Shown: positions 19,501 to 64,000 of the stretch, piece after piece | How the letters are laid out: the number at the start of each line of letters is the position of its first letter | Position numbering within the stretch: the stretch's first letter is position 1 | IMG/VR virus record: IMGVR_UViG_3300036792_000284 | Location: 1 to 64,000 of that record | Direction: 5' to 3' (one strand) | DNA length: 64,000 nt | DNA from: a virus | Notes under the pieces: model-generated | Database searches by the model: none | What the model saw: only the letters and a program-made list of their open reading frames with translations | What the model was told of the DNA's origin: nothing | Made by a program: the position numbers and the translations under genes

Positions 19501-19882
19501 AACCCGAGCCACTTCTGCCGGTTGAGCAGCGTGGTGTAGTTCAGCTCCTGAGACAGGTCGCTCAGGTGCTGGGTCATGTCGTTCCGGCCGCCGAACAGCA
19601 GCTGGGTGTTGGTCTGCTTGGCGGAGTTGGCCAACTGGGACAGGGCCTGGGACTCGGCCTGGATGGCCGCGATGTCCTTCTGCCGGGCGGCGGCTGCCGC
19701 CGTCGAGCCCGCCACCTCGGCCGCGGTCTCCGCCTTGACCGCGTCCGCCATGCCCTGCAGTGCCGCCTTGGCCTGGGCGGCGTCACGCATCAGGTCACCG
19801 AAGTCGCCTGGATGTTAAACCGATCGCCTTGTAAATTACGTACCAGGCGATCTAACCAGTACTCCGGTCCCTCATAAGCCAC
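13590..19882 (-). CDS. Tape measure protein with C-terminal lytic transglycosylase-like domain; N-terminus predicted via two translational hops (ORF-track start 19790)
   Basis: 2066-aa Ala-rich ORF after tail chaperones; NREAGFNMTAQNPTSGAYGLAQF muralytic motif; upstream MAYEGPEYW/YVIYKAIG/DFGDLMRD segments separated by TTA-led 10-nt gaps. Confidence 0.9.
15020..15610 (-). repeat. 114-bp (38-aa) tandem repeat x5 in tape measure
   Basis: PGWFxGYAxSWxQHWVQGWQAFNxNIxxPMGKFFT units; aagaac anchors at 15037, 15151, 15265, 15379, 15493. Confidence 0.9.
19806..19858 (-). other. Two tandem translational bypass elements (TGG|TTAGATCGCC|TGG and GGT|TTAACATCCA|GGC)
   Basis: Matched take-off/landing codons, identical 10-nt gap length, each gap starting with the rare TTA codon; removing the gaps restores an open frame into the TMP. 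Confidence 0.75.
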
Positions 19883-43762: not shown

Positions 43763-43940
43763 CCGGAAATGATGCCAGGTGCTGGCCGAGCTGCGGGTAC
43801 ACGGCGGCGGGCCCCTTCGGGGCGGGGCGGGGCGGCTGCGGGCCGGGCGTCATCCCGGCGGCCAGCTCCACGGCCATGCCGGCGGCAATCTCCTCTACCA
43901 GGTCGCGGGCGAGCGCCACCATGGCGTCATGCGCGCTCAC
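43686..43940 (-). CDS. Hypothetical protein
   Basis: GTGA overlap with portal stop. Confidence 0.5.
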   Translation of the reverse strand: MSAHDAMVALARDLVEEIAAGMAVELAAGMTPGPQPPRPAPKGPAAVYPQLGQHLASFPGDTISGLAYAHLQLAPPPGQQAPGA

Positions 43941-45491
43941 GACCCGCCCAGCCCGTTACCCTTGGTGGTCTGCCCGACGACGCTGCCGCCCGACGCCGAG
44001 GTGCCGGTGCCGGTCGGGTGAGCGGTGGTGGGGATCTTGACGGTGATGGCGGGCGGCTGGGCGCCGCCGGAGCCCCGGCCCGCGCCCTGCACCTGGGCCG
44101 GGTTCGCCGCGGCGGCCTGCGCCTGCTTCTGGGCGGCCTGCTGCATGACCTGCGCCTGCTTCTCCCGGTCGGCCTCGACCTGGTCGTAGTCGATGTCGAA
44201 CCCGAAGTTCTGAGCCATCCGCGATTCCAGGTGCAGCATGAACTCGGGGGTGACGTTCGCCTGCGGGCCGGCGGTCGCCAGCTTGTCGAACGTGTCCTGG
44301 ATGGCGGCCTTGGCCTCCTCGGTCAGCGGGCCCCACTTGAACTGCGGGTACTTGCCGGAGCCGAAATTCCAGTCGACGAACCGCGGGAAGATGTGGTCGT
44401 TGATGACCTGCGCCATCTCCTCCAGGATGCCCTCAAGCATCAGGAAGAACGTGACGTCGTCCTGCTTGCCGAAGTCGACCAGGGTGCTGTCCCCCTGGCC
44501 GCCGCCCTGCTCGTTGTCGAACCACTGCGCAAGCACCGACTTGGACATCTGGCTGTTGTGGTGGTTGATCAGGCCGAGGAAGTCAAAGCGCGACGCGGAC
44601 TCATTCAACGTCTGCACCGTCCAGTCGGCGGTGGGCAGCGCGATGTACTGGGCGAGCCCGAGCTGGCTCAGCGCCCTGACGAAGTTGTTCTTGTCCTGCG
44701 TGGGGGCGTTCGGCACCATCGTGCCCACCCGCAGGCCGACCGCGGCCCTTTGCGCAGCCAGGTGGGCGATGTAGTAGAGCTTCTCCTTCTTGTCGTAGTG
44801 GTAGAACGCCGACTCGAACATGGACACGCCGTAGAACGGCCTTTCGGCCTCCTCGTGCGCGTAGTACAGCGCGGTTTCCTTCTCGATCTTGACGTCGATG
44901 GTGCGGCCCTGGAAGAAGGTCCTCTGCCGGAAGCCGTTGAACTCGCCCTGGCCGTCGAGCAGGAACGTGAGGGTCTCGCTCGGGCGCCAGTCGATCTTGC
45001 GCAACGTGTACTTGCCCTTGTTCGGCCCGGTCTTCGGCTGCCAGTAGACCATCTCCCAGGCGCTGAACCCGTTGAACAAGGCCAGCAGCATCTGCTTGAC
45101 GAACTTGTCGAAGCTGTGGGTCATGCCGCCCTGCGACCGCGGGGCGAACAGCAGGTCCTTGCAGAACTGCGCTTCCTTGGTGCCGCCGGCCTGGCCGTCG
45201 ATGGGCACCACGTCGGCGTTCTTCATCGCGGACAGCAGCGGCTTGGTCAGCAGCCGGTACAGCGCCCGGGCCTGGCCGTCGCGCCGTCGCATGGTGACCA
45301 GCTGGCGGATGCTGACCGGGTCGTCACGGAAGACTTCCCACGAGTCGCGGTACGGGGTCGCGAACGGCAGGAAGTACGGGACACCCGTGGCAAAGCTGAG
45401 TGCTTCCGGGGGCGGCTGCGGCAGCGCCTGCTCATCCTGGAGGACGTAGCCCTCCTGGCCGTAACCCTGCGTGGTCTAAGGTGACGCCCAT
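43937..45491 (-). CDS. Portal protein (Mu gp29/DUF935-like); N-terminus predicted via a +4-nt hop at ACC-TTAG-ACC
   Basis: ALFNGFSAWEMV..RPFYGVSMFESAF..HNSQMSKSVLAQ motifs; ~60 coding-like codons upstream of ATG 45292 bounded by an in-frame TAG. Confidence 0.85.
45473..45482 (-). other. Translational bypass element ACC|TTAG|ACC
   Basis: Matched Thr codons flanking a TTA-led 4-nt gap at codon 4-5 of portal. Confidence 0.65.
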
Positions 45492-45586
45492 TCCTCCGGG
45501 CGGCTGCACGCTAGCGGTGTACGAACCTTGTCCCGAACCTGGGGTCGTCATTCGGCATCACCTCCTCGCAGACAGGAGGCGGTGCC

Positions 45587-46351
45587 TCAGAGCTGCATGA
45601 CATCTCCCGTCTGATCGGAGGCAAGTTGCGCGGCTACCGCGGCAGGCAGTTCTTCCCAGGCGTGCTCTGGACGCTTAAAGTGACACGACTCGCACAACGT
45701 CACCAGCCAGCGCAGATCGTTCACCGGCCGGAACCGGAACGGGATGATGTGGTGGACGTGCAGCTTCTGCGCCGAGAAGTCAGTTAGCCCGCAGTCCTGG
45801 CAGGTATAGCCGTCGCGTTCAAGCGCCTGGCCCCGGACCTCCAGCCAGTCGCTGCCTCGGTAGGTGGGTGCGTAGTTGCCTGCGCACCAGCGCCAGTGCT
45901 GCGCTCCGCGCTGAGCCCCGCGCACAATTCCCCGCAGCGAGGCCTCGCTGTAGACGGAACCGAGCTTCTTTCCCGTGCGCCGGGCCACTTCCACCAGCGG
46001 CAGAGACGTATCCCGCAAGAGGGCAAGCTCTTCCTCAGACCAGCCAGGACGGCGCACCACACCATGCCGGGACGCCATGGCCTTGACTGCATCCGGCGTC
46101 CTGCTCGTAGTCCGAGCCACCTCGGCAATGGACAGCGATACATCGCGCAGCAGCTCCAACTCGGCATCGGTCCACGGATTGTCGTCTCCGCGCTTCAGCC
46201 CTACTCCGACCCGAAACGAGCGATCGATGCCCAACCGGATAGCCTTGTGCTCCACCGCCACCAACGAACGCCCGGTCCGCTCGGCGACCTCGGCCAGCGT
46301 CAGTGACGTGTCCCGCAGCAGGGCCAGCTCGTCTTCAGCCCAGCGCGACAC
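45587..46351 (-). CDS. HNH endonuclease with three N-terminal Myb/HTH-like repeats
   Basis: W.E.EL.LLRD.SL...EVAR.TG x3; LERDGYTCQDCG..LHVHHI..N...LVTLCESCH. Confidence 0.85.
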   Translation of the reverse strand: MSRWAEDELALLRDTSLTLAEVAERTGRSLVAVEHKAIRLGIDRSFRVGVGLKRGDDNPWTDAELELLRDVSLSIAEVARTTSRTPDAVKAMASRHGVVRRPGWSEEELALLRDTSLPLVEVARRTGKKLGSVYSEASLRGIVRGAQRGAQHWRWCAGNYAPTYRGSDWLEVRGQALERDGYTCQDCGLTDFSAQKLHVHHIIPFRFRPVNDLRWLVTLCESCHFKRPEHAWEELPAAVAAQLASDQTGDVMQL

Positions 46352-46568
46352 GGACCAGTTCCAGCTTGCGCTCCGCCTCGCGAGCCCGCCGCTCCCAGTC
46401 CTCGCCGCCAACGGCCAGGTCCTGCTGCGCGGCAGTACTAATCAGGCCACGGAGGAAGTCCAGCGGCGGCGTTTCCCCGCGCATCCTCTCAATGGCCGCG
46501 AGCATGTCATCGCTGACCTTGAGGCCGATGAGGTTACGGTAACTACCAGGCTCCAGGTTTCTTGTCAC
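46335..46568 (-). CDS. Small DNA-binding/antitoxin-like protein (RHH-like)
   Basis: LIGLKVSDDMLAAIERMRG..DFLRGLI; leaderless from consensus promoter. Confidence 0.5.
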   Translation of the reverse strand: MTRNLEPGSYRNLIGLKVSDDMLAAIERMRGETPPLDFLRGLISTAAQQDLAVGGEDWERRAREAERKLELVRVALG

Positions 46569-48033: not shown

Positions 48034-48233
48034 TCCTCCTGTTACGAGCCCCTGTGCTTGTCACGAGGCAACTGACAACTATTACGTACCAGGAAGATCA
48101 GCAGGGCGGTTTTCCCCTAAAACGTGGCCGGAACGCAAAAGCCCCGCCAGTCCCGGAGGGACGGCGGGGGGTAGTAGGTCCAGCTTAGTACGAAGTTGTG
48201 CAGATATGCTGCCACAGCGTGAGCATCTTCGAG

Positions 48234-48306
48234 TGGCCTCGGCTGGACTCGAACCAGCGACCCACGCCTTAGGAGGACGCGGCTCTATCCACTGAGCTAC
48301 GGGGCC
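48234..48306 (-). tRNA. tRNA-Arg(CCT)
   Basis: Cloverleaf; loop CT-CCT-AA. Confidence 0.9.
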
Positions 48307-48307
48307 C

Positions 48308-48383
48308 TGGAGGCGGAAACCGGAATCGAACCGGTGTGCGTCGCTTTGCAGGCGACTGCATATCCAGACTCTGCCATACCGCC
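48308..48383 (-). tRNA. tRNA-Cys(GCA)
   Basis: Cloverleaf; encoded CCA. Confidence 0.9.
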
Positions 48384-48384
48384 G

Positions 48385-48461
48385 TGGTGCGCTCGGAGGG
48401 ACTCGAACCCCCGACCCCTGGTTCCGGAAACCAGTGCTCTATTCCACTGAGCTACGGGCGC
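48385..48461 (-). tRNA. tRNA-Arg(CCG)
   Basis: Cloverleaf; encoded CCA. Confidence 0.9.
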
Positions 48462-48462
48462 T

Positions 48463-48546
48463 TGGTGACGGACGCAGGAATCGAACCTGCCGTGCCGAAG
48501 CAGCCGGGTTACAGCCGGCCCCCATGCCATCTCGGGTCACTCCGCC
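48463..48546 (-). tRNA. tRNA-Tyr(GTA)
   Basis: Cloverleaf with long variable arm. Confidence 0.9.
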
Positions 48547-48547
48547 T

Positions 48548-48622
48548 TGGGGTTGGTAACGAGAATCGAACTCGTATATCTGGAGCCACAGTCCAGCGCT
48601 CTGCCGTTGAGCTATACCGACC
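48548..48622 (-). tRNA. tRNA-His(GTG)
   Basis: Cloverleaf; G-1:C73. Confidence 0.9.
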
Positions 48623-48623
48623 G

Positions 48624-48695
48624 TGGGCGATGCTGGGATCGAACCAGCGACAACTGGTGTGTGAGACCAGCGCTCTTCCGCTGAGCTAAACGCCC
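48624..48695 (-). tRNA. tRNA-Val(CAC)
   Basis: Cloverleaf. Confidence 0.9.
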
Positions 48696-48706
48696 TCGTA
48701 CTTGCG

Positions 48707-48779
48707 TGCCCCCCGGGAGACTCGAACTCCCACCCTCCTGATCCGTAGTCAGACGCGCTATCCGTTGCGCTAGAGGGGC
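48707..48779 (-). tRNA. tRNA-Arg(ACG)
   Basis: Cloverleaf. Confidence 0.9.
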
Positions 48780-48783
48780 AAAG

Positions 48784-48855
48784 TGGGCGTACCTGGGGTT
48801 GAACCAGGGTCCTCTTCCGTGTCGGGGAAGCGCGCTTCCGCTGCGCTACACGCCC
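48784..48855 (-). tRNA. tRNA-Val(GAC)
   Basis: Cloverleaf; C33. Confidence 0.85.
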
Positions 48856-48896
48856 ATCGCTAGACAGTGGTCAAGAAACAGGTACCGTTTAATCAC

Positions 48897-49031
48897 GTGG
48901 ACACTTTCATCCTGCTGGCCATCGTCTTCGCTGCCGGCGTCTGGGTCGGCATGCGGTTCGGCGGCAGGCGCGCGCTGTGGCGGCTGCACACCGGGAACTA
49001 CAAGAAGATGGTCCGTGACCTCGACCTGTGA
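48897..49031 (+). CDS. 44-aa membrane peptide antisense to tRNA array
   Basis: MDTFILLAIVFAAGVWVGMRFGGRRALWRLHTGNYKKMVRDLDL; high GC3 codon usage. Confidence 0.6.
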   Translation: MDTFILLAIVFAAGVWVGMRFGGRRALWRLHTGNYKKMVRDLDL

Positions 49032-49032
49032 G

Positions 49033-49108
49033 CGCTCCTGACGGGATTCGGACCCGCGGTCTCCACCGTGACAGGGTGGCGGGGACGGCCAGACTCCCCT
49101 ACAGGTGC
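49033..49108 (-). tRNA. tRNA-Asp(GTC), atypical
   Basis: Cloverleaf; T-loop GTCCGAA, A3:A70 mismatch. Confidence 0.75.
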
Positions 49109-49120
49109 ATGTGTACTGCG

Positions 49121-49195
49121 CTCTCGCGGCAGGATTCGAACCTGCAACCCCCCGATTAACAGTCGGGCGCTAACTGCCAGTTGAGCTACGCGAGA
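49121..49195 (-). tRNA. tRNA-Asn(GTT)
   Basis: Cloverleaf. Confidence 0.9.
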
Positions 49196-49214
49196 TCGCT
49201 TGAGAGGCCTCCGG

Positions 49215-49979
49215 TTATTTAGCCCTTATCCAGCAGGGCCAGCCACGTATTCCCCGGAGCTTACGCCGGCCGCCAGTGCCGGACCTCGGTAAACAGTAAA
49301 GGCTCCCGGCGCCAGGAGCCCTCGCTGCTCTGTTGCCAGCCTGTCGAGGTGACTGGTCAGACCGTGGCGGGGGCAGGATTCGAACCTGCGTCTTCCGGGT
49401 TATGAGCCCGGGCTGGGACCTAGCTCCAGTCACCCCGCACCGTGTGGCACCAGGATAGCCCCCCAGGTGCCCGTGCTGCCGACGGGAATCGAACCCGTGT
49501 CGCTTATCCGGTTTGAAGGACCGGCGGCCCCTATCCAGCAGAGCAACGACAGCATGTAACTTAACGTGAGCCCAGTCAATCCCGCACCTGACACGGCTGA
49601 CCGTAGCCCGGGAAACTCCAAAACGTGCAGCAGCTGCCCGGGTGGGCTCACTTGATGCCCTGATCTCACGCACCAACTGTGGAGTCAGCTTGGCCTGAAC
49701 CTGCTGCTCTCCGTGCAACTTCTCCCCGGCAGACTTCTCATCATGATGCGGCCGACAGAGCACTTGGCACTTAGCTAGCTCAAGCTCACGCCGCATGCGC
49801 GACCACGACCAGACGTTATGACTAACCTTCAAGGCAGGGTCAATATGGTCCAGTTGAAGGTCATCGGCGCTGCCGCACCGGACACACGTCTTGTCGGCGA
49901 ACCAGGATGCACGAGTAGCTGCGGCCCGCTCTCTCTGGTATCTGCGCTGCTGTTCCGGGTCCTTATAGGGCACAAACAA
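49215..49979 (-). CDS. HNH homing endonuclease (HNH + HTH, ~140 aa core) whose frame reads on through two tRNA genes
   Basis: CVRCGS.DDLQLDHIDP..ELAKCQVLCRPHH; NUMOD/HTH-like RFGVSRATVSRV. Confidence 0.8.
   Translation of the reverse strand: MFVPYKDPEQQRRYQRERAAATRASWFADKTCVRCGSADDLQLDHIDPALKVSHNVWSWSRMRRELELAKCQVLCRPHHDEKSAGEKLHGEQQVQAKLTPQLVREIRASSEPTRAAAARFGVSRATVSRVRCGIDWAHVKLHAVVALLDRGRRSFKPDKRHGFDSRRQHGHLGGYPGATRCGVTGARSQPGLITRKTQVRILPPPRSDQSPRQAGNRAARAPGAGSLYCLPRSGTGGRRKLRGIRGWPCWIRAK
49365..49439 (-). tRNA. Initiator-type tRNA-Met(CAT)
   Basis: GGG/CCC anticodon stem, 1:72 mismatch. Confidence 0.8.
49474..49553 (-). tRNA. Atypical tRNA, best fold Glu(TTC) (loop CCTTCAA, 9-nt variable region)
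   Basis: Acceptor GCTGTCG/CGGCAGC, canonical T arm. Confidence 0.6.
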
Positions 49980-49982
49980 GTG

Positions 49983-50054
49983 TAACCCCTACCGCGTATA
50001 ACCCGTGCTCTCGCCTTGAAAGGACGGCGACCTCGGCCGCTAGTCGATGGGGGC
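49983..50054 (-). pseudogene. Degenerate tRNA-Glu(TTC) with destroyed T arm
   Basis: GCCCCCATCGACTAGCGGCCGAGGTCGCCGTCCTTTCAAGGCG intact; T loop replaced by GGGTTATACGCGG. Confidence 0.65.
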
Positions 50055-50186
50055 TCAGGAGACGAGCCGAATACCTTGTCTAAGGGCTCGGCCCGCTCCA
50101 CCGTGCCTGATATGTGTGCCAAGGCCGACTTCCCTCCGGTAGACAGTCCGGAGGTACTCACACACTGGGACAGGCTTGCCCGGCCG

Positions 50187-50261
50187 TGGTCCTGGCGGGC
50201 TTCGAACCCGCGTCACCGACTTGAGGGGCCGGCGTCCTGAGCCTGACTAGACGACAGGACC
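50187..50261 (-). tRNA. tRNA-Glu(CTC)
   Basis: Cloverleaf. Confidence 0.85.
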
Positions 50262-50272
50262 ATGTTCTTGCG

Positions 50273-50346
50273 CGCGCCGTGCAGGACTCGAACCCGCGAC
50301 CGTTCGCTTAGAGGGCGACCGCTCTGTCCGACTGAGCTAACGGCGC
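50273..50346 (-). tRNA. tRNA-Arg(TCT)
   Basis: Cloverleaf. Confidence 0.85.
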
Positions 50347-50350
50347 TGGG

Positions 50351-50422
50351 TGAGCTGCCAGGGACTTGAACCCTGTTCCCTGGATTAAAAGTCCGGTGCA
50401 TAGCCGTACATGCTCGCAGCCC
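50351..50422 (-). tRNA. tRNA-Lys(TTT)
   Basis: Cloverleaf; near-identical to Lys(CTT) copy. Confidence 0.85.
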
Positions 50423-50423
50423 G

Positions 50424-50500
50424 TGGTAGCGGTAGCGGGACTTGAACCTGCGACCTCGCGAATTATGAGTTCGGCGCTCTGCCAGCTGAGCTATACCGCC
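50424..50500 (-). tRNA. tRNA-Met/Ile2(CAT), elongator type
   Basis: Cloverleaf; encoded CCA. Confidence 0.85.
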
Positions 50501-50501
50501 G

Positions 50502-50575
50502 TGGGCGAGGCAGGATTTGAACCTGCGTCCTTCTCCTTATCAGAGAGCTGCTCGAACCGACTGAGCTGCTCGCCC
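50502..50575 (-). tRNA. tRNA-Ile(GAT)
   Basis: Cloverleaf. Confidence 0.85.
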
Positions 50576-50576
50576 G

Positions 50577-50663
50577 TGGAGGAGACGGTGGGATTCGAAC
50601 CCACGGGGCCGTAGCCCGCCGGTTTTCGGGACCGGAGCCTTAATCCACTCGTGCCACGTCTCC
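50577..50663 (-). tRNA. tRNA-Ser(CGA)
   Basis: Long variable arm; CCA. Confidence 0.9.
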
Positions 50664-50664
50664 A

Positions 50665-50750
50665 TGGAGGAACGGGCGGGATTCGAACCCGCGGGGCCGT
50701 GGCCCTCCACGCTAGCAACGTGGTGCGATCGTCCGCTCTGCCACCGTTCC
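50665..50750 (-). tRNA. tRNA-Ser(GCT)
   Basis: Long variable arm; CCA. Confidence 0.9.
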
Positions 50751-50754
50751 AAAG

Positions 50755-50839
50755 TGTCCGAGGAGAGATTTGAACTCTCACGCCCCGTGTGGAGCACTAG
50801 GGCCTGAACCTAGCGTGTCTGCCGTTCCACCACCCGGAC
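50755..50839 (-). tRNA. tRNA-Leu(CAG)
   Basis: Long variable arm. Confidence 0.9.
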
Positions 50840-50840
50840 T

Positions 50841-50916
50841 TGGAGCCGACGACGGGACTCGAACCCGCGGCCTCAACCTTGGCAAGGTTGCACGCTTCCA
50901 GCTGCGCTACGTCGAC
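50841..50916 (-). tRNA. tRNA-Gly(GCC)
   Basis: Cloverleaf; CCA. Confidence 0.9.
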
Positions 50917-50928
50917 ATGCTTACTGCG

Positions 50929-51001
50929 AGCCCGGAAACGGATTTGAACCGATGGCCTCTTCCGTACCGAGGAAGCGCTCTGCCTACTGAGCTATCCGGG
51001 C
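50929..51001 (-). tRNA. tRNA-Thr(GGT)
   Basis: Cloverleaf. Confidence 0.85.
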
Positions 51002-51032
51002 ATACTGGTCTCCGACAAGCGGAGGTAGCTAC

Positions 51033-51149
51033 ATGAACAAGGGCGCCAGCATCGCTAACGGGCCGATGCCGCACCAAGTGCCACAAGAAGTCCTCGACGC
51101 GAAAGCCGTCTCCACGACCTCCTGGGACCTAATCGAGCCGGGCATTTAG
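51033..51149 (+). CDS. 38-aa peptide antisense to tRNA array
   Basis: RBS ggaggtag; MNKGASIANGPMPHQVPQEVLDAKAVSTTSWDLIEPGI. Confidence 0.45.
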   Translation: MNKGASIANGPMPHQVPQEVLDAKAVSTTSWDLIEPGI

Positions 51150-51245
51150 AGAGGGCGTTCTTTAGGCCAGGGTTGTTGGCATCTTGAACTAACGGAAGCC
51201 CTGGCCCCCGCCCGGCCCCGCCGTAGGTACCGGATCTCCCTCAGG

Positions 51246-51331
51246 TGTCCGAAGCGGGACTCGAACCCGCACGCCCCTTGCGGGACACCCGCACCTCAAG
51301 CGGGTCAGTCTACCAATTGCAGCATTCGGAC
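51246..51331 (-). tRNA. tRNA-Leu(GAG)
   Basis: Long variable arm. Confidence 0.9.
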
Positions 51332-51341
51332 TTGATTTACA

Positions 51342-51462
51342 GGAGAACCCGAAGACCGGACCCCGGCGTGCACACCGAGGCGGCTGCCCTCACTCCGACT
51401 AGTTGCGGCCTGCGCACGACCGACTGGCACGGCGAGTCTTCTGGGGATGTTGCACGTTCTCC
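51342..51462 (-). ncRNA. Putative structured spacer RNA
   Basis: Closing stem GGAGAAC/GTTCTCC plus inner GAAGAC/GTCTTC. Confidence 0.35.
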
Positions 51463-51464
51463 CG

Positions 51465-51537
51465 AGCCCCGAACCGGCATCGAACCGATGACCTCCCCAT
51501 TACGAGTGGGGCGCTCTGCCATCTGAGCTACCGGGGC
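51465..51537 (-). tRNA. tRNA-Thr(CGT)
   Basis: Cloverleaf. Confidence 0.9.
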
Positions 51538-51548
51538 ATTGTTACCAG

Positions 51549-51619
51549 CTGGAGTACCTGGACTCGAACCAAGACCGACGGGTTCAGGGCCCGTCACGCT
51601 GCCATTACGCCATACTCCA
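51549..51619 (-). tRNA. tRNA-Gln(CTG)
   Basis: Cloverleaf. Confidence 0.85.
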
Positions 51620-51716
51620 CCGTCGCCGGGGCCCTTTGCTCGCCCCGGAGTGACGACCTTGTTCCTCCCCAGGGAGGGGCCGGGCAAGGATTCGCAGGAC
51701 GGCCTTGCCAGCCGTG

Positions 51717-51791
51717 TGGGCGAGGCGGGATTCGAACCCGCACGTTCCGCTGTTTGAGAGCGGCGAGTCTGCCGAGTTGCCCCACTCGCCC
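51717..51791 (-). tRNA. tRNA-Leu(CAA) with short (class I) variable arm
   Basis: Loop CT-CAA-AC; 5-nt variable region. Confidence 0.75.
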
Positions 51792-51826
51792 TGAGGACCC
51801 GGCGAGCATCGCTCCCCGGGCCCAAG

Positions 51827-51898
51827 TGCGCCGCCAGGGACTTGAACCCCGTTCCCTGGATTAAGAGTCCGGTGCATAGCCGTACATGCTCGCGGCGC
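51827..51898 (-). tRNA. tRNA-Lys(CTT)
   Basis: Cloverleaf. Confidence 0.85.
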
Positions 51899-51992
51899 GT
51901 AACCCGGACCTATTCTGGCCTCACAGCACTTATGCGAGGCGCTGTAGTCTATTTGGCCAGGTGGTTTCCGGGGGCGGTATGCATCCCGCCAG

Positions 51993-52065
51993 AGGGGATG
52001 ACGGGAATCGAACCCGCATCTGCTGATTGGAAGTCAGTCATCCTGAGCCATTGGACGACATCCCC
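51993..52065 (-). tRNA. tRNA-Gly(TCC)
   Basis: Cloverleaf. Confidence 0.85.
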
Positions 52066-52079
52066 GTTGTGTTACTGCG

Positions 52080-52152
52080 TAGGACCTGGAGATTCCGAGA
52101 CTCCGACCTGCAGGGTTTCAATCTGCCGCTCTGCCATCTGAGCTAAGGCCCC
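52080..52152 (-). tRNA. tRNA-Phe(GAA), atypical T loop
   Basis: D and anticodon arms canonical; T arm GGAG-TCTCGGAAT-CTCC. Confidence 0.65.
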
Positions 52153-52155
52153 ATA

Positions 52156-52270
52156 GTGACAGCTCACTCAGGAAACCACGGGAACCCGGTACCCGAGCCT
52201 CTCCTGGGATGGACGTCTCCACTTCCGCTGACTACCGCTTAAAGGCGGCTCCTGCGTCGGAGCTGTCAAG
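52156..52270 (-). ncRNA. Novel ~115-nt structured RNA, copy A
   Basis: TGACAGCTC/GAGCTGTCA closing stem; shares CGA.GCAGGAGCC and GGGTACCGGGTTCCC with copy B. Confidence 0.65.
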
Positions 52271-52342
52271 TCGGGACACAGGGACTCGGACCCCGTCTGC
52301 CTGCTCCCAAAGCAGGCGCGCTAACCCTTACGCGATATCCCG
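52271..52342 (-). tRNA. tRNA-Pro(TGG)
   Basis: Cloverleaf; T loop variant GTCCGAG. Confidence 0.8.
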
Positions 52343-52347
52343 TAGAC

Positions 52348-52479
52348 GGGCGGAGTGCTGCCGTTACACCACAGCCCTCAGCTCCTCGGGGCGGCCTACC
52401 CCGGCGTCCCTGGTGGCCACCAGGTCGGCGCGGAACCTTCGCGAGAGCTGCCGGGGACTTGAACCCCGGACTGCCGCCC
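52348..52479 (-). ncRNA. Circularly permuted tRNA-like RNA 1 (YrlA-like architecture)
   Basis: Order T arm - acceptor stem with ~65-nt insert - D arm, closed by GGGCGG/CCGCCC. Confidence 0.75.
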
Positions 52480-52558
52480 TGGTCGGGGTGGTGAGATTTG
52501 AACTCACGACCTCTTCGTCCCGAACGAAGCGCGCTCGACCAAGCTGCGCTACACCCCG
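52480..52558 (-). tRNA. tRNA-Pro(CGG)
   Basis: Cloverleaf; CCA. Confidence 0.9.
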
Positions 52559-52561
52559 AAG

Positions 52562-52677
52562 GTGACGGTGCACCCAGTCCGCCCGGGGAACCCGGTACCC
52601 CGGCGCAGGCTCAGGCCATGCGTCCATGCTTCGGCCGACCACCTCTTTGCGGAGGCTCCTGCTTCGGCACCGTCAAG
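52562..52677 (-). ncRNA. Novel ~115-nt structured RNA, copy B
   Basis: TGACGGTGC/GCACCGTCA closing stem covarying with copy A. Confidence 0.65.
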
Positions 52678-52688
52678 TCGAACTAAGT

Positions 52689-52802
52689 TCACGGCATGAC
52701 CGTCCAGCTGTTGGTCTGCTCGTGCAACTGGATCTCACTGTGGCGAACCCAAGACGGCTCGCCGGGCCCGCCGGTGCAAGCGACGTTTCCCTTGTCTCCC
52801 AT
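52689..52802 (-). CDS. 37-aa peptide inside tRNA array
   Basis: RBS gggaggt; MGDKGNVACTGGPGEPSWVRHSEIQLHEQTNSWTVMP. Confidence 0.45.
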   Translation of the reverse strand: MGDKGNVACTGGPGEPSWVRHSEIQLHEQTNSWTVMP

Positions 52803-52853
52803 GAGGATTACCTCCCCTCAGCAGTCGGCATGTTTTCCACACCAGCTACTACG

Positions 52854-52926
52854 TGGAGCCTGCGGGATTCGAACCCGCGACCTTTTCCGTGCGAGGGAAC
52901 TGCGCTACCAGTTGCGCCAAGGCCCC
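52854..52926 (-). tRNA. tRNA-Ala(CGC)
   Basis: Cloverleaf; G3:U70. Confidence 0.9.
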
Positions 52927-52930
52927 AGAT

Positions 52931-53060
52931 GCGGCACTCTGCCAATTGAGCTACCGGCCAGCGACAGCCAGACTGACCCCGGCTTTCCGCTAAGCGTACT
53001 GACCTGGTGCTGACTGCCTCGCATGTGACCGGGCAGGACTCGAACCTGCAACCCGCCGCC
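52931..53060 (-). ncRNA. Circularly permuted tRNA-like RNA 2
   Basis: GCGGC..GCAGG-TTCGAGT-CCTGC-CCGGTCA-[~65 nt]-TGGCCGG-TA-GCTC-AATTGGCA-GAGT-GCCGC. Confidence 0.75.
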
Positions 53061-53061
53061 G

Positions 53062-53134
53062 TGGAACCTGCCGGATTCGAACCGGCGACCTCCTGCATGC
53101 CATGCAGGCGCGCTACCAGCTGCGCCAAGGCCCC
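53062..53134 (-). tRNA. tRNA-Ala(GGC)
   Basis: Cloverleaf. Confidence 0.9.
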
Positions 53135-53349
53135 AGAGTGCGGCAGGCCGGACCGCGGTGTGAACACGGCCCCGCCCGCCACGTCTGAACAGGCAGCTCT
53201 TGTATCCGCTTCTTTCGCTGCCTGCAACCGGGACATAATCAACGGCCCCGGCTGCGGCGGGATGGCGCCCGCCGCTGATGCTCACGCTGTGGAGTTAGCA
53301 AGTTACGGTGACATGCGCCTGCGCGGGCTCTCGCCGTTGCTGACGGTCG

Positions 53350-53421
53350 CAGGGACGGGGGGAGTCGAACCCTCATTCCGCTGGTTTTGGAGACCAGCCG
53401 CCGAGCCGCTGGCTCGTCCCT
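53350..53421 (-). tRNA. tRNA-Trp(CCA)
   Basis: Cloverleaf. Confidence 0.85.
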
Positions 53422-54416: not shown

Positions 54417-56381
54417 CTACTGCAGGTAGTCTCCGCTAACCGAGCCCCAGTCGTCCAGGTAACTGCTGCCGTACTCCATGCCGGGCCGGTCGCTCGGCAT
54501 GAACTCATCCGGCCCCAGCACCGTCAGCGACATCGGCATTCCCGCCGGCGAGGGGATCTCCGCCGTCGGGCCGTAGAACTCGACCTGGCCGAGGTAGGCG
54601 CGCTTGCCCGCCGGGTCCTCCTGGCCGCCGACCTCCAGCGCGCCGGACACCGCGCCGGCCAGGGAGTCGGCCTCGTCCTTGGAGCTGTCGCCCAGGTGGT
54701 CGATCCGGCCGTTCGGCAGCCGGGACAGGCCGAGCAGCTCGATGATGGTCAGCTCGCGGGCCGGGGCCTCCATCCGGCCCTCGTACATGACGTCGCGCAG
54801 CGTCCGCCAGCCCTCTTCGGACACGTCGGTGGAGAAGCGGTCGGTCTCGATGCCGTGGCTTTCGAGGATCTGCATCGAATCCTTGGACTGCCACTGGTCG
54901 AAGGTGAAGCGGACGATCGGGAAGCCCATCCGGCGCAACTCCAGGCACAGCATGCGCGCCCACCGAATCTGGATCTCCATCGGCGGGACCGCGCCGGCGT
55001 CGGACTCGTAGCTGATGGTGAAGTCGACCTTCACCACCGGCCGCCGCTCGGCCACCTGGATCTCGATGCCGTCCTCGTCGTGGCCGACCAGCGCGTGGTC
55101 CTGCCAGCGCTTGACGTGCGCCATGGACACGCCGGCCCGGTCGCCGGTGGCCGCCAGGTCGGCGTGCATCGCGTACAGGGCGCCCTTGACCGGGAAGAAG
55201 TCCGGGCTGAAGGTGTAGAGCGGCTTCCAGGTGGCGCCCTCGCGCACGTACGCCACGCTCACCGGCGGCTGGGTGACCTCGGTGAAGCACTCCCGGACCG
55301 CCTGCTCGTTGGCGAAGTACGGGTTGATCGCGCGCCGCGGCTTGCACTCGTATTTCGCCTCGGCCAGCGCCGGGTCCTTCTCGTAGTCCTCCGCGAACGC
55401 CTCTTTCCCGCTGATGCGGGGATTGGCCTCCCACGTCGCCAAAGGACCGCTGACGTAGTACCGGCTGTTCTCGCCCTTGGCCGCGTTGTCCGCCTTGCCC
55501 TTGGCCACCAGCTGCTGGATGGTGCTGCCCAGGTAGCGCGGGTAGGAGATGTGCACGTTCTTGAACGTGCCGGGGAACCGGGTGGTCGCCGAGGTGCGGA
55601 GCATGTCGAGGATCGCCTCGGCCGAAGACGACGACTCGCGCTGCCGGGCGCCGGCGTTGCGGGCCAGCTCGGCCGCCGAGCGGAACGCGTCGATCTCGTC
55701 GGCGATGCCGAGCACCAGGTTGAGGCCCTCCTGGCTGTCGGCATCAGAGTGACCGCTGACGGCCTCGATGTTGTGCTCGAAACGGATCGTGTCCAGCAGC
55801 GCGGTGGTGCGCTCGCCGCTGCTGCGCCGCTGCCGCTCAGCCGCGTCGAGGATGTCGATCCCGCCGACCCGCTGGAACCAGCAGCCCGGCCGCTGCACCG
55901 CGCGGCGCATCGGGGCGAAGAACGCGCGCTGGGCCTGCTTGGACGACGACGCCACGTTCAGCACGTGGATCGAGTCCTGCTCGGGCATCTGGAAGTAGAC
56001 CTGCGGGGACTTCAGGCACAGCAGCAGGTAGCAGACCCGCATGGCGATCATCCGGCAGGTGTGGTCCTTGCCGCCGCCTTTGCCCCACTCCAGTTCCAGG
56101 AAGTTGACCATCCGGCACGGCTGGCTCCAGTAGTCGCGGACCCGCTTGTCCGCGCTGCCGGCCAGCAGCTCGTAGGTCTCCGGGTAGTAGACGCGCTCGG
56201 CGTGCCGGACCGCCTCGTACTGGACCTCGCTCAGCGGCGGGTTGGCCAGGTACCCGCGGTCCTGCACGAACACGCTGAGCGGGACCGGCTCCTCCTCGAA
56301 GATGCCCAGCCCGCGCGCTGACGTGCCCGTGCCGCCCGCCCGACCGAGCAGGGCCGCGGCGGCTGCCCCCGCGGAAGCCAC
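54417..56381 (-). CDS. terL: Terminase large subunit
   Basis: Walker A-like WGKGGGKD, Walker B GIADEIDAF, nuclease DLAATGD..FDQWQS..KDEADSLAGAV. Confidence 0.9.
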   Translation of the reverse strand: MASAGAAAAALLGRAGGTGTSARGLGIFEEEPVPLSVFVQDRGYLANPPLSEVQYEAVRHAERVYYPETYELLAGSADKRVRDYWSQPCRMVNFLELEWGKGGGKDHTCRMIAMRVCYLLLCLKSPQVYFQMPEQDSIHVLNVASSSKQAQRAFFAPMRRAVQRPGCWFQRVGGIDILDAAERQRRSSGERTTALLDTIRFEHNIEAVSGHSDADSQEGLNLVLGIADEIDAFRSAAELARNAGARQRESSSSAEAILDMLRTSATTRFPGTFKNVHISYPRYLGSTIQQLVAKGKADNAAKGENSRYYVSGPLATWEANPRISGKEAFAEDYEKDPALAEAKYECKPRRAINPYFANEQAVRECFTEVTQPPVSVAYVREGATWKPLYTFSPDFFPVKGALYAMHADLAATGDRAGVSMAHVKRWQDHALVGHDEDGIEIQVAERRPVVKVDFTISYESDAGAVPPMEIQIRWARMLCLELRRMGFPIVRFTFDQWQSKDSMQILESHGIETDRFSTDVSEEGWRTLRDVMYEGRMEAPARELTIIELLGLSRLPNGRIDHLGDSSKDEADSLAGAVSGALEVGGQEDPAGKRAYLGQVEFYGPTAEIPSPAGMPMSLTVLGPDEFMPSDRPGMEYGSSYLDDWGSVSGDYLQ

Positions 56382-63734: not shown

Positions 63735-64000
63735 CGGCCTGCTCTGGCTCCAGCTCGGCGGGCGCGGGGACCCGGGTGAATCCAGGTCCCGCCCAGTTGT
63801 CGGTGTCGTCTGGCGCAGTCCCGAAAGGCTGGCCGTACTGGTGGGTCATTGTGCAGCCTGGGATATCCACAGGTCCCTCCACAGGGTGTGAAGATCGGGT
63901 ACCTGTAATACGCCGACCCCCGCGAGCGCCGCGATTACCTTCCCTTCGGCTTCGTCAGCGCACCGCGGGCAGAACTGCCCGGGCCAGGGGACGTCCAGCA

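Follow-up and report, generated by a model that had tools for sequence, protein, structure and literature searches.

How a full-length portal protein can be produced from a gene whose reading frame is broken close to its start is the question raised by the virus record IMGVR_UViG_3300036792_000284, of which the first 64 kb (positions 1 to 64,000 of 124,279 bases, hereafter the window) were analysed. On the minus strand, the locus reads ATG(45491) GGC GTC ACC(45482-45480) TTA(45479-45477) G(45476) ACC(45475-45473) ACG CAG GGT TAC. The portal frame is closed by a TAG (45478-45476), after which 61 open codons devoid of ATG, GTG or TTG lead to ATG 45292; frame 0, the one set by ATG 45491, meets a TGA (45434-45432) at codon 20, that is 16 codons past the UUA. 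The open reading frame (ORF) from 45292 matches the Pfam family Portal_Mu (PF06074; E = 2.5e-33, 116.3 bits for a gathering cut-off of 23.9) as well as the portal group phrog_113, and this interrupted locus is the single portal locus of the record. A sequence-only reading of the window had described the codons and stops of this site, in statements that all hold, and had claimed that the portal needs recoding at ACC-TTAG-ACC, a claim borne out by the alignments and by the selection detected in two frames. The site corresponds to a 7-nucleotide (nt) insertion, composed of the coding gap TTAG and a duplicated ACC, and the full-length portal is probably made by translational bypassing.

The insertion was delineated by aligning 54 portal genes with MAFFT, ca. 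40 of the relatives being insert-free. At the site, the window differs from the latter by exactly 7 nt, TTAGACC: it reads GTC ACC TTAGACC ACG CAG where the insert-free relatives have GTC, ACC or AGC, ACG or TCG, and CAG. The same 7-nt insertion was seen by whole-genome blastn against the complete relative G001. At the protein level, ca. 90 of the 120 best database homologs of the portal (65-92% identical) are uninterrupted across ...PPGGMGVT(T/S)QG(Y/F)GQEGY...VPYFLPFATPYRDSWEVFRDDP...MRRRDG. The intact homolog P0002 (92% identical) starts with MGVTTQGYGQEGY, which is the join of ACC 45482-45480 to ACG 45472-45470, and the hop product predicted by the sequence-only reading, (M)GVTTQGYGQEGY..., coincides exactly with the sequence encoded by intact homologs. 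The VPYFLPFATPYRDSWEVFRDDP motif is near-invariant across these ca. 90 homologs and is partly kept in Microbacterium phage Magritte, whose portal (50% identical) aligns from residue 20 of the N-terminal extension.

The alignments also bear on the position of the start codon. Frame 0 is already open from ATG 45551, which lies 9 nt downstream of a GAGGAGG, and most homologs begin MTTPG(G/S)GQGSY..PPGGMGVT, to be compared with the MTTPGSGQGSYTASVQPPGGMGVT spelled by the 24 window codons from 45551. Since the N-termini of the homologs match frame 0 from this position, ATG 45551 is most likely the start of the gene rather than ATG 45491 as first proposed, and the take-off codon would be codon 24, not codon 4.

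The sequence-only reading had named a lack of conservation upstream of Met 45292 as a sign against recoding; the residues in question are conserved and under purifying selection. For the 24 upstream codons, 65% of the differences from 53 relatives are synonymous in frame 0 and 5-8% in the other two frames; for the 61 codons before Met 45292, the share is 65% in the portal frame and 5-10% in the wrong frames. When the window was compared with L017, a contig interrupted at the same site, the upstream part showed 3 synonymous and 0 non-synonymous differences and the downstream part 22 and 8, respectively. Because synonymous substitutions predominate in frame 0 before the insert and in the portal frame after it, these comparisons indicate that both halves are kept as protein-coding sequence in two different frames and that a recoding event is needed to join them.

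These data make it quite unlikely that there is no recoding at all and that the portal simply starts at ATG 45292 (451 amino acids, aa) or at a non-canonical codon past the TAG, the upstream 85 codons being a dispensable broken leader. The gene-caller product P0005 does begin at Met 45292, where the Pfam match also begins, but the 61 and the 24 codons are each under purifying selection in their own frame, and the near-invariance of the VPYFLPFATPYRDSWEVFRDDP motif, together with its partial conservation in Magritte, does not fit a dispensable leader. Moreover, a decaying leader would be expected to gather random indels and stops, and not solely TTA-led inserts with matched flanking codons. In the conserved part of the alignment, all frame-breaking indels are TTA-led and no others occur, and none of the 18,690 codons of the uninterrupted portal genes is a TTA.

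An assembly or sequencing error, or a dead genome, appears extremely improbable. The exact insert of the window is found in one assembly only, yet a structured 7-nt insertion is atypical of sequencing errors, and a sister insert, TTAAGCC, occurs at the same site in two independent metagenomes, others recurring in up to seven. Identical inserts are thus shared by contigs of independent metagenomes (L017 and L018, L025 and L026, and the seven contigs L032-38). Purifying selection has continued after the split between the window and L017, and the relative G002, which is rated 100% complete, holds an interrupted portal only.

In all, 16 further inserts were found in the portal genes of relatives (Table 1, in which take-off codon, gap and landing codon are given in this order and joined by hyphens). 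They occupy 9 sites, all within the first ca. 100 portal codons, and their gaps range from 1 to 27 nt. A TTA stands in the A site right after the last sense codon in 16 of 16 cases, as it does in both gaps of the tape-measure gene of the same genome (see below); in TAC-T-TAC, it is formed by the lone gap base together with the landing codon. Past each landing codon, the ortholog sequence picks up exactly. Among the 16, 12 land on a codon identical to that of take-off, 2 on a synonymous Gly codon and 2 on a codon mismatched at the first base. With the window and the two tape-measure gaps included, landing and take-off codons are identical in 15 of 19 and differ at the first base in 2, while a synonymous Gly landing is seen in 2 of the 19, or in 3 when the GGC landing of the second tape-measure gap of the window is counted. 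Of the 19 gaps, 15 have a purine as their fourth base (TTAG or TTAA), which creates a stop in the +1 frame.

Gap length bears on the choice between hopping and a +1 frameshift, in which the UUA would be decoded before a +1 shift (product GVT-L-TTQGY) or a tRNA would bind out of frame. Hungry codons promote +1 shifts, and +1 is the net change needed in the window. However, the insert of L051 at site D is in frame (15 nt) and nevertheless holds a TAG, and at site H the insert of L137 is in frame (12 nt) while those of L045 and L051 are of 13 nt, with gaps of 9 and 10 nt and the same landing codon. No single frameshift rule resolves a 15-nt stop-bearing and a 12-nt in-frame insert, nor gaps of 10 versus 11 nt and of 9 versus 10 nt; hence hopping fits the in-frame stop-bearing gap and the varying gap lengths, and a fixed +1 frameshift does not. 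In the window, the codon overlapping UUA in the +1 frame is the stop UAG and tRNA-Thr is unable to re-pair from ACC to CCU, unlike what is required at sites of the prfB/RF2 type, so that an ACC-to-ACC hop is the mechanistically natural route. In addition, homologs carry no extra residue at the junction. Taken together, a +1 frameshift is very unlikely.

Under the bypassing favoured here, translation would begin at ATG 45551 and proceed to codon 24, with peptidyl-tRNA-Thr on ACC and the very rare UUA in the A site. The UUA being decoded slowly or not at all, the peptidyl-tRNA would release, the mRNA would slide and the peptidyl-tRNA-Thr would re-pair with the identical ACC 4 nt downstream. Decoding would then restart at ACG and yield ...GGMGVT-TQGYGQEGY..., the sequence of uninterrupted homologs, whereas ribosomes reading the UUA as Leu would terminate at the TGA 16 codons further on. 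TTA accounts for 2 of the 13,349 codons in the long ORFs of the genome. The 33 tRNAs of the phage cover most amino acids and comprise Thr(GGU), which reads ACC, Thr(CGU), which reads the resume codon, and Leu CAG, GAG and CAA; neither Leu(UAA) nor Leu(UAG), and hence no UUA decoder, was found among them by ARAGORN in the whole record. That the hop takes place, how efficient it is and that it depends on the UUA-decoding tRNA of the host are inferred from these patterns.

The sequence-only reading had further proposed a second TTA, in GGG TTA C GGC (45467-45458), as a backup hop site. This is an out-of-frame view of the conserved Gly-Tyr codons GGT TAC, and the same twelve letters, CAGGGTTACGGC, occur in insert-free relatives, others using GGC TAC or GGG TTC. 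Hopping at this place would involve re-pairing from GGG to GGC and would put other residues in place of the conserved TQGY, and the backup was abandoned.

Several observations weigh against bypassing at the portal site. The match to Pfam Portal_Mu begins only at the internal Met 45292, residue 62 of the extended translation, and a truncated portal would therefore keep the whole Pfam domain. The predicted fold around the site is no better than that of shuffled sequence (z = -0.13) and reveals no unusual RNA structure. No stimulator specific to interrupted genes was found: the Shine-Dalgarno (SD)-like GGAGGA that precedes the take-off codon belongs to the codons of the conserved PPGG and is found in insert-free relatives too. 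The exact insert of the window is known from one assembly, and both an exact-pattern scan and a second viral scan gave no new contigs. Two of the related inserts have a landing codon that differs at the first base (ACC to GCC and ATG to CTG). Finally, the UUA decoder of the host would be rare judging solely from G+C content and codon usage.

The closest counterpart is the UUA-mediated bypassing proposed for the large terminase of Streptomyces phage phiHau3, which carries two 10-nt TTA-led inserts, and for the terminases of two prophages, StrepC.1 and that of S. catenulae, which carry inserts of 7 nt (Smith et al. 2013; Antonov et al. 2023, PMC10732093). In that work, bypassing of the phiHau3 type was backed by reporter data and by a junction peptide obtained in E. 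coli and detected by mass spectrometry, and the addition of a +1-frame stop at the site doubled recoding; an SD-like signal 5' of the site was also proposed for phiHau3 (Antonov et al., PMC10732093). Bypassing concerned 3 of 100 terminase genes only, and portals are unmentioned (PMC10732093). The window portal resembles the phiHau3 terminase in having a short frame-breaking insert in an essential virion gene of a high-GC actinophage, with a TTA right after the last sense codon, flanks that are contiguous in relatives and a frame-0 stop soon afterwards. In these genes, the total insert is of 7 or 10 nt, a landing codon takes part and an SD-like sequence is present upstream. At the level of sequence, the window site thus appears to belong to the phiHau3 class, its insert being absent from orthologs and beginning with TTA, with a cognate landing codon and an early frame-0 stop. 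On the other hand, the window gene is a portal with the site near its N-terminus, in an unrelated uncultured lineage of ca. 150 kb with 33 tRNAs, its relatives display 9 polymorphic sites with gaps of 1-27 nt, no strong RNA structure flanks the site, and the case is known here from sequence. The inserts described here also adjoin an HNH endonuclease gene, while in phiHau3 the HNH gene gp1 lies ca. 1.4 kb from the terminase. The window portal therefore adds a further case to a type that is known but still rare; new with respect to earlier descriptions are the portal as the gene concerned, the polymorphism at several sites, the spread of gap lengths and the link to HNH genes.

Two other systems share part of this design. 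In E. coli, the hopping that arises spontaneously at "hungry" codons (Weiss et al. 1987; Gallant and Lindsley; refs 47-52 of PMC10732093) likewise combines a slow A-site codon with a peptidyl-tRNA that re-pairs at a nearby downstream cognate codon, but it consists of low-level laboratory events, whereas the portal hop would be required for an essential protein. Mitochondrial genes of the yeast Magnusiomyces capitatus contain "Byp" elements (cited in PMC10732093), which are, like the portal inserts, numerous bypassed inserts at differing positions of conserved genes, with an unused or rare A-site codon at take-off. Byp elements are mobile, 27-55 nt long and hosted by an AT-rich mitochondrial genome, whereas portal-type inserts are of 1-27 nt and are concentrated at two gene starts.

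The second of these gene starts is that of the tape-measure gene (window 19790-19882, minus strand), in which two TTA-led gaps occur, TGG-TTAGATCGCC-TGG and GGT-TTAACATCCA-GGC. In the genome of the window (G0), the sequence reads GTG(19882)...TAC TGG-TTAGATCGCC-TGG TAC GTA ATT TAC AAG GCG ATC GGT-TTAACATCCA-GGC GAC TTC. Both gaps are kept in the complete relatives G001 and G002 (G1 and G2), where the first measures 11 nt instead of the 10 found in G0, and the substitutions that flank them are all synonymous in the hop frames. The reading of the second gap as GGT...GGT with 19 nt (position 19818) was dropped for GGT to GGC with 10 nt after comparison with G1 and G2. The UUA-led gaps of this genome thus number at least three, of which one interrupts a head gene and two interrupt a tail gene, in agreement with the earlier suggestion that head and tail genes share a UUA-led device.

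Such sharing may reflect the coordinated UUA control inferred by the sequence-only reading, a regulatory gate in which portal and tape-measure protein are made only while the UUA-decoding tRNA of the host (bldA in Streptomyces) is absent or uncharged, which would tie assembly to growth stage. This role, which is compatible with the hop, is possible but rather doubtful. To our knowledge, bldA-type control is documented for Streptomyces only, which counts against it. In its favour are the need of two genes of one genome for UUA-led hops, the set of 33 phage tRNAs without a UUA reader, the conservation of the tape-measure gaps in G0, G1 and G2, and the fact that the same model was proposed for the phiHau3 terminase (PMC10732093). 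However, the portal is uninterrupted in the majority of close relatives and the insert sites vary by lineage, unlike a conserved regulatory device, and the association with HNH genes suggests another cause. The distribution of the polymorphic inserts, which track HNH, suggests a selfish or immunity-related origin at least as much as regulation.

The HNH gene of the window has the same orientation as the portal, and 35 nt separate its end from the portal ATG. Homologs occupy the same position in L017/18, L025/26, L051 and L137, the latter being an interrupted locus retrieved from a later metagenome scan, and in L047 this position is held by an HNH of an unrelated family (HVDH...N...CN motif). 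Overall, an HNH gene lies at most 400 nt upstream of the portal in 6 of the 7 insert-bearing lineages; the L032-38 lineage, with three inserts, is the sole insert lineage without a recognisable HNH. Insert-free loci for which 900 nt or more of upstream DNA was available (28 viral contigs and several new metagenome contigs) all lack such an HNH gene. All portal inserts fall in the ca. 285 nt nearest the HNH gene, none being found in the remaining ca. 1,200 nt of conserved portal body or in the three downstream genes. In a tree of the portal body, insert/HNH lineages are scattered and at least 6 changes are forced by well-supported branches. The portal body of the window is closest to those of the insert-free L048 and L011, but from -34 to +110 of the portal start the window shares 88-92% identity with L017, compared with 60-70% with L011 and L048, which defines a mosaic patch. 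The HNH proteins are 43-56% identical to each other, compared with 80-90% for the portals. The sporadic distribution of the HNH gene argues against an essential packaging HNH. In L017 (1494-2117), the HNH homolog has lost zinc-binding cysteines (CQDGG and CVSHH, versus CQDCG and CESCH in the window), and the HNH of L017 and L018 may be decaying.

In T4, the HNH-family nuclease MobA and the gap of gene 60 form a mobile cassette in which the gap prevents self-nicking (Bonocora et al. 2011; Manning & Atkins, bioRxiv 10.1101/2022.08.31.505936). The portal inserts might likewise be the immunity mark of an HNH homing cassette, a reading compatible with the hop that we consider credible, if somewhat short of probable. 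The nuclease would cut the insert-free portal 5' ends of competing phages, inserts breaking its recognition site would protect the carrier, and only those that can be hopped (TTA and a matched codon) would persist in an essential gene. Such an arms race could have given rise to the natural series of bypass elements, which number at least 17, occupy 9 sites among the first ca. 100 codons and have gaps of 1-27 nt. Drawn from co-occurrence, this interpretation is consistent with the presence of an adjacent HNH gene in 6 of 7 insert lineages and its absence from all insert-free loci with sufficient upstream sequence, with the confinement of the inserts to the DNA nearest the HNH gene, with the scattering of insert/HNH lineages over the tree, with the mosaic patch shared by the window and L017 and with the T4 precedent, where the insert blocks MobA nicking. 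Against it, the HNH proteins have diverged while the portals remain 80-90% identical, the L032-38 lineage combines three inserts with no recognisable HNH, the tape-measure TTA gaps are conserved in three genomes, and the insert lineages are few and not fully independent. Furthermore, the distance between HNH and terminase in phiHau3 means that an HNH link is not evident in the type case.

As in T4 gene 60, the portal has matched take-off and landing codons and a stop triplet at take-off, which here overlaps the UUA in the +1 frame, and as in T4 mobA/gene 60, an HNH-family gene stands directly beside the interrupted gene with a sporadic presence or absence among relatives. The T4 gap is nonetheless a single one of 50 nt, compared with 4 nt in the window and several different inserts per gene in the portals of relatives, and the T4 trigger combines a stop, a nascent-peptide signal and a take-off stem-loop, whereas that of the portal would be a rare sense codon.

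Whole-genome blastn against the two complete relatives identified the portal insert as the sole clean TTA-led insertion specific to the genome of the window, and bypassing in this genome is therefore occasional, not massive. Scans based on composition and codon score for further TTA-plus-repeat sites in the genome and the loci were insensitive and did not recover the known portal sites, owing to the atypical codon usage of the N-terminal regions and to the shortness of the open stretches; most of the matches were ordinary gene junctions. Among the candidates discarded, 91454 (GCC-TTATG-GCC) is an ordinary stop/start overlap at which the upstream gene of the relatives ends, and 6321 of L048 is likewise an ordinary junction. 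At 91454 and 90189 of G000 and at 1584 of the window (minus strand), an in-frame TTA lies within TTATG, whose ATG is the start of the next overlapping gene; the recurrence of this arrangement (3 of few in-frame TTA) may reflect pausing-assisted coupling, or chance. Another in-frame TTA, in GGC GTA TTA CAG GTA (window 63897-63914, minus strand), is kept in G0, G1 and G2 ca. 20 codons before the end of an ORF of ca. 1,040 codons. It could be an in-frame GTA-TTACAG-GTA hop site or a pause site before the SD and GTG start of the next gene; past it, the sequence is not conserved in frame between the three genomes.

The record has a CheckV completeness of 82% and a G+C content of 69%, with long coding ORFs all on the minus strand. 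Its relatives are metagenome-derived viral contigs of 142-152 kb, one of which has terminal repeats and a completeness rating of 100%, and the phage belongs to an uncultured high-GC lineage of ca. 150 kb. A scan of genome contigs gave one distant metagenome-assembled genome only and no host clue. The gene order around the portal is given in Table 1, together with the coordinates of the recoding site.

Table 1. Features of the portal locus in the window and TTA-led inserts in the portal genes of relatives (HTH, helix-turn-helix).
Feature	Position or contig	Strand	Description
Large terminase	54420-56381	-	First in transcription-direction order around the portal
33 tRNA genes	48233..53421	-	ARAGORN, whole record; followed by the 316-aa protein gene
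316-aa protein gene	Between tRNA array and HNH endonuclease gene	-	Placed by gene order
HNH endonuclease gene with HTH repeats	45587..46411	-	PF01844; phrog_8446; portal next
Portal segment 1 (frame 0)	45480..45551	-	Probable start ATG 45551 to take-off ACC, 24 codons MTTPGSGQGSYTASVQPPGGMGVT
SD-like GGAGGA, possible stimulator	45492..45497	-	Gly-Gly codons of PPGGM; ends 9 nt 5' of take-off codon
Coding gap TTAG	45476..45479	-	TTA 45479-45477, predicted A-site codon at take-off; TAG 45478-45476 shuts the portal frame
Landing codon ACC	45473..45475	-	Same as take-off ACC 45482-45480
Portal segment 2 (portal frame)	43937..45472	-	Resume codon ACG 45472-45470 to stop; holds the Portal_Mu domain
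Second TTA (frame 0)	45462..45464	-	Made by portal-frame codons GGT TAC; judged incidental
TGA ending frame 0	45432..45434	-	UUA read as Leu would give a 39-aa product from ATG 45551
Head protease	41858-40734	-	Downstream of portal
Major head protein	39180-37843	-	After head protease
Insert, site A	L025/26		ATG-TTAG-CTG
Insert, site B (site of the window)	L017/18		ACC-TTAA-GCC
Insert, site C	L025/26		GGT-TTACCCT-GGT
Insert, site C	L032-38		GGT-TTAG-GGT
Insert, site C	L047		GGT-TTAG-GGC
Insert, site D	L017/18		GGC-TTAACCT-GGT
Insert, site D	L051		GGT-TTAGTTGCTTAG-GGT
Insert, site E	L032-38		TTC-TTAGCGA-TTC
Insert, site E	L047		TTC-TTAAGCG-TTC
Insert, site F	L051		TAC-T-TAC
Insert, site G	L032-38		TCC-TTAA-TCC
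Insert, site H	L045		CGA-TTAATCAAAT-CGA
Insert, site H	L051		CGA-TTAATTAAAT-CGA
Insert, site H	L137		CGA-TTACCAAAT-CGA
Insert, site H'	L047		TTC-27 nt-TTC
Insert, site I	L137		GAA-TTAC-GAA

Other interruptions were noticed in the portal family. Seven close homologs (P0015, P0048, P0050, P0059, P0060, P0069 and P0113) are 820-890 aa long and contain the intein domain PF14890, a second kind of selfish insertion in this family. In the N-terminal regions of P0050 and P0053, two-residue "LR" insertions are found (PYR-LR-DSW and FR-LR-DDP), which would fit in-frame CGN-TTA-CGN hop sites translated literally by the gene caller. In the otherwise intact portal of L006 (1702-3297), codon 462, where a low-complexity C-terminal tail begins, is an in-frame TAG (ADRE*LQKQ) that is not related to TTA.

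So far, UUA-triggered bypassing had been based on four sites in three terminase genes, to which the portal of the window, those of its relatives and the tape-measure gene add ca. 19 natural variants. Their shared rule, a TTA in the A site and a cognate landing codon, combined with varied gaps, makes them comparative material for the requirements of short hops. Such portals are truncated at the internal Met by gene callers, ca. 25 of the 120 best homologs starting with MRR(R/Q)DG. If the HNH link is true, it would provide an evolutionary reason besides regulation for gaps in essential phage genes and a second independent case of the mobA/gene 60 type. It would then join phiHau3-type UUA bypassing with T4 mobA/gene 60, two phenomena that have been separate so far, and would explain why the inserts exist.

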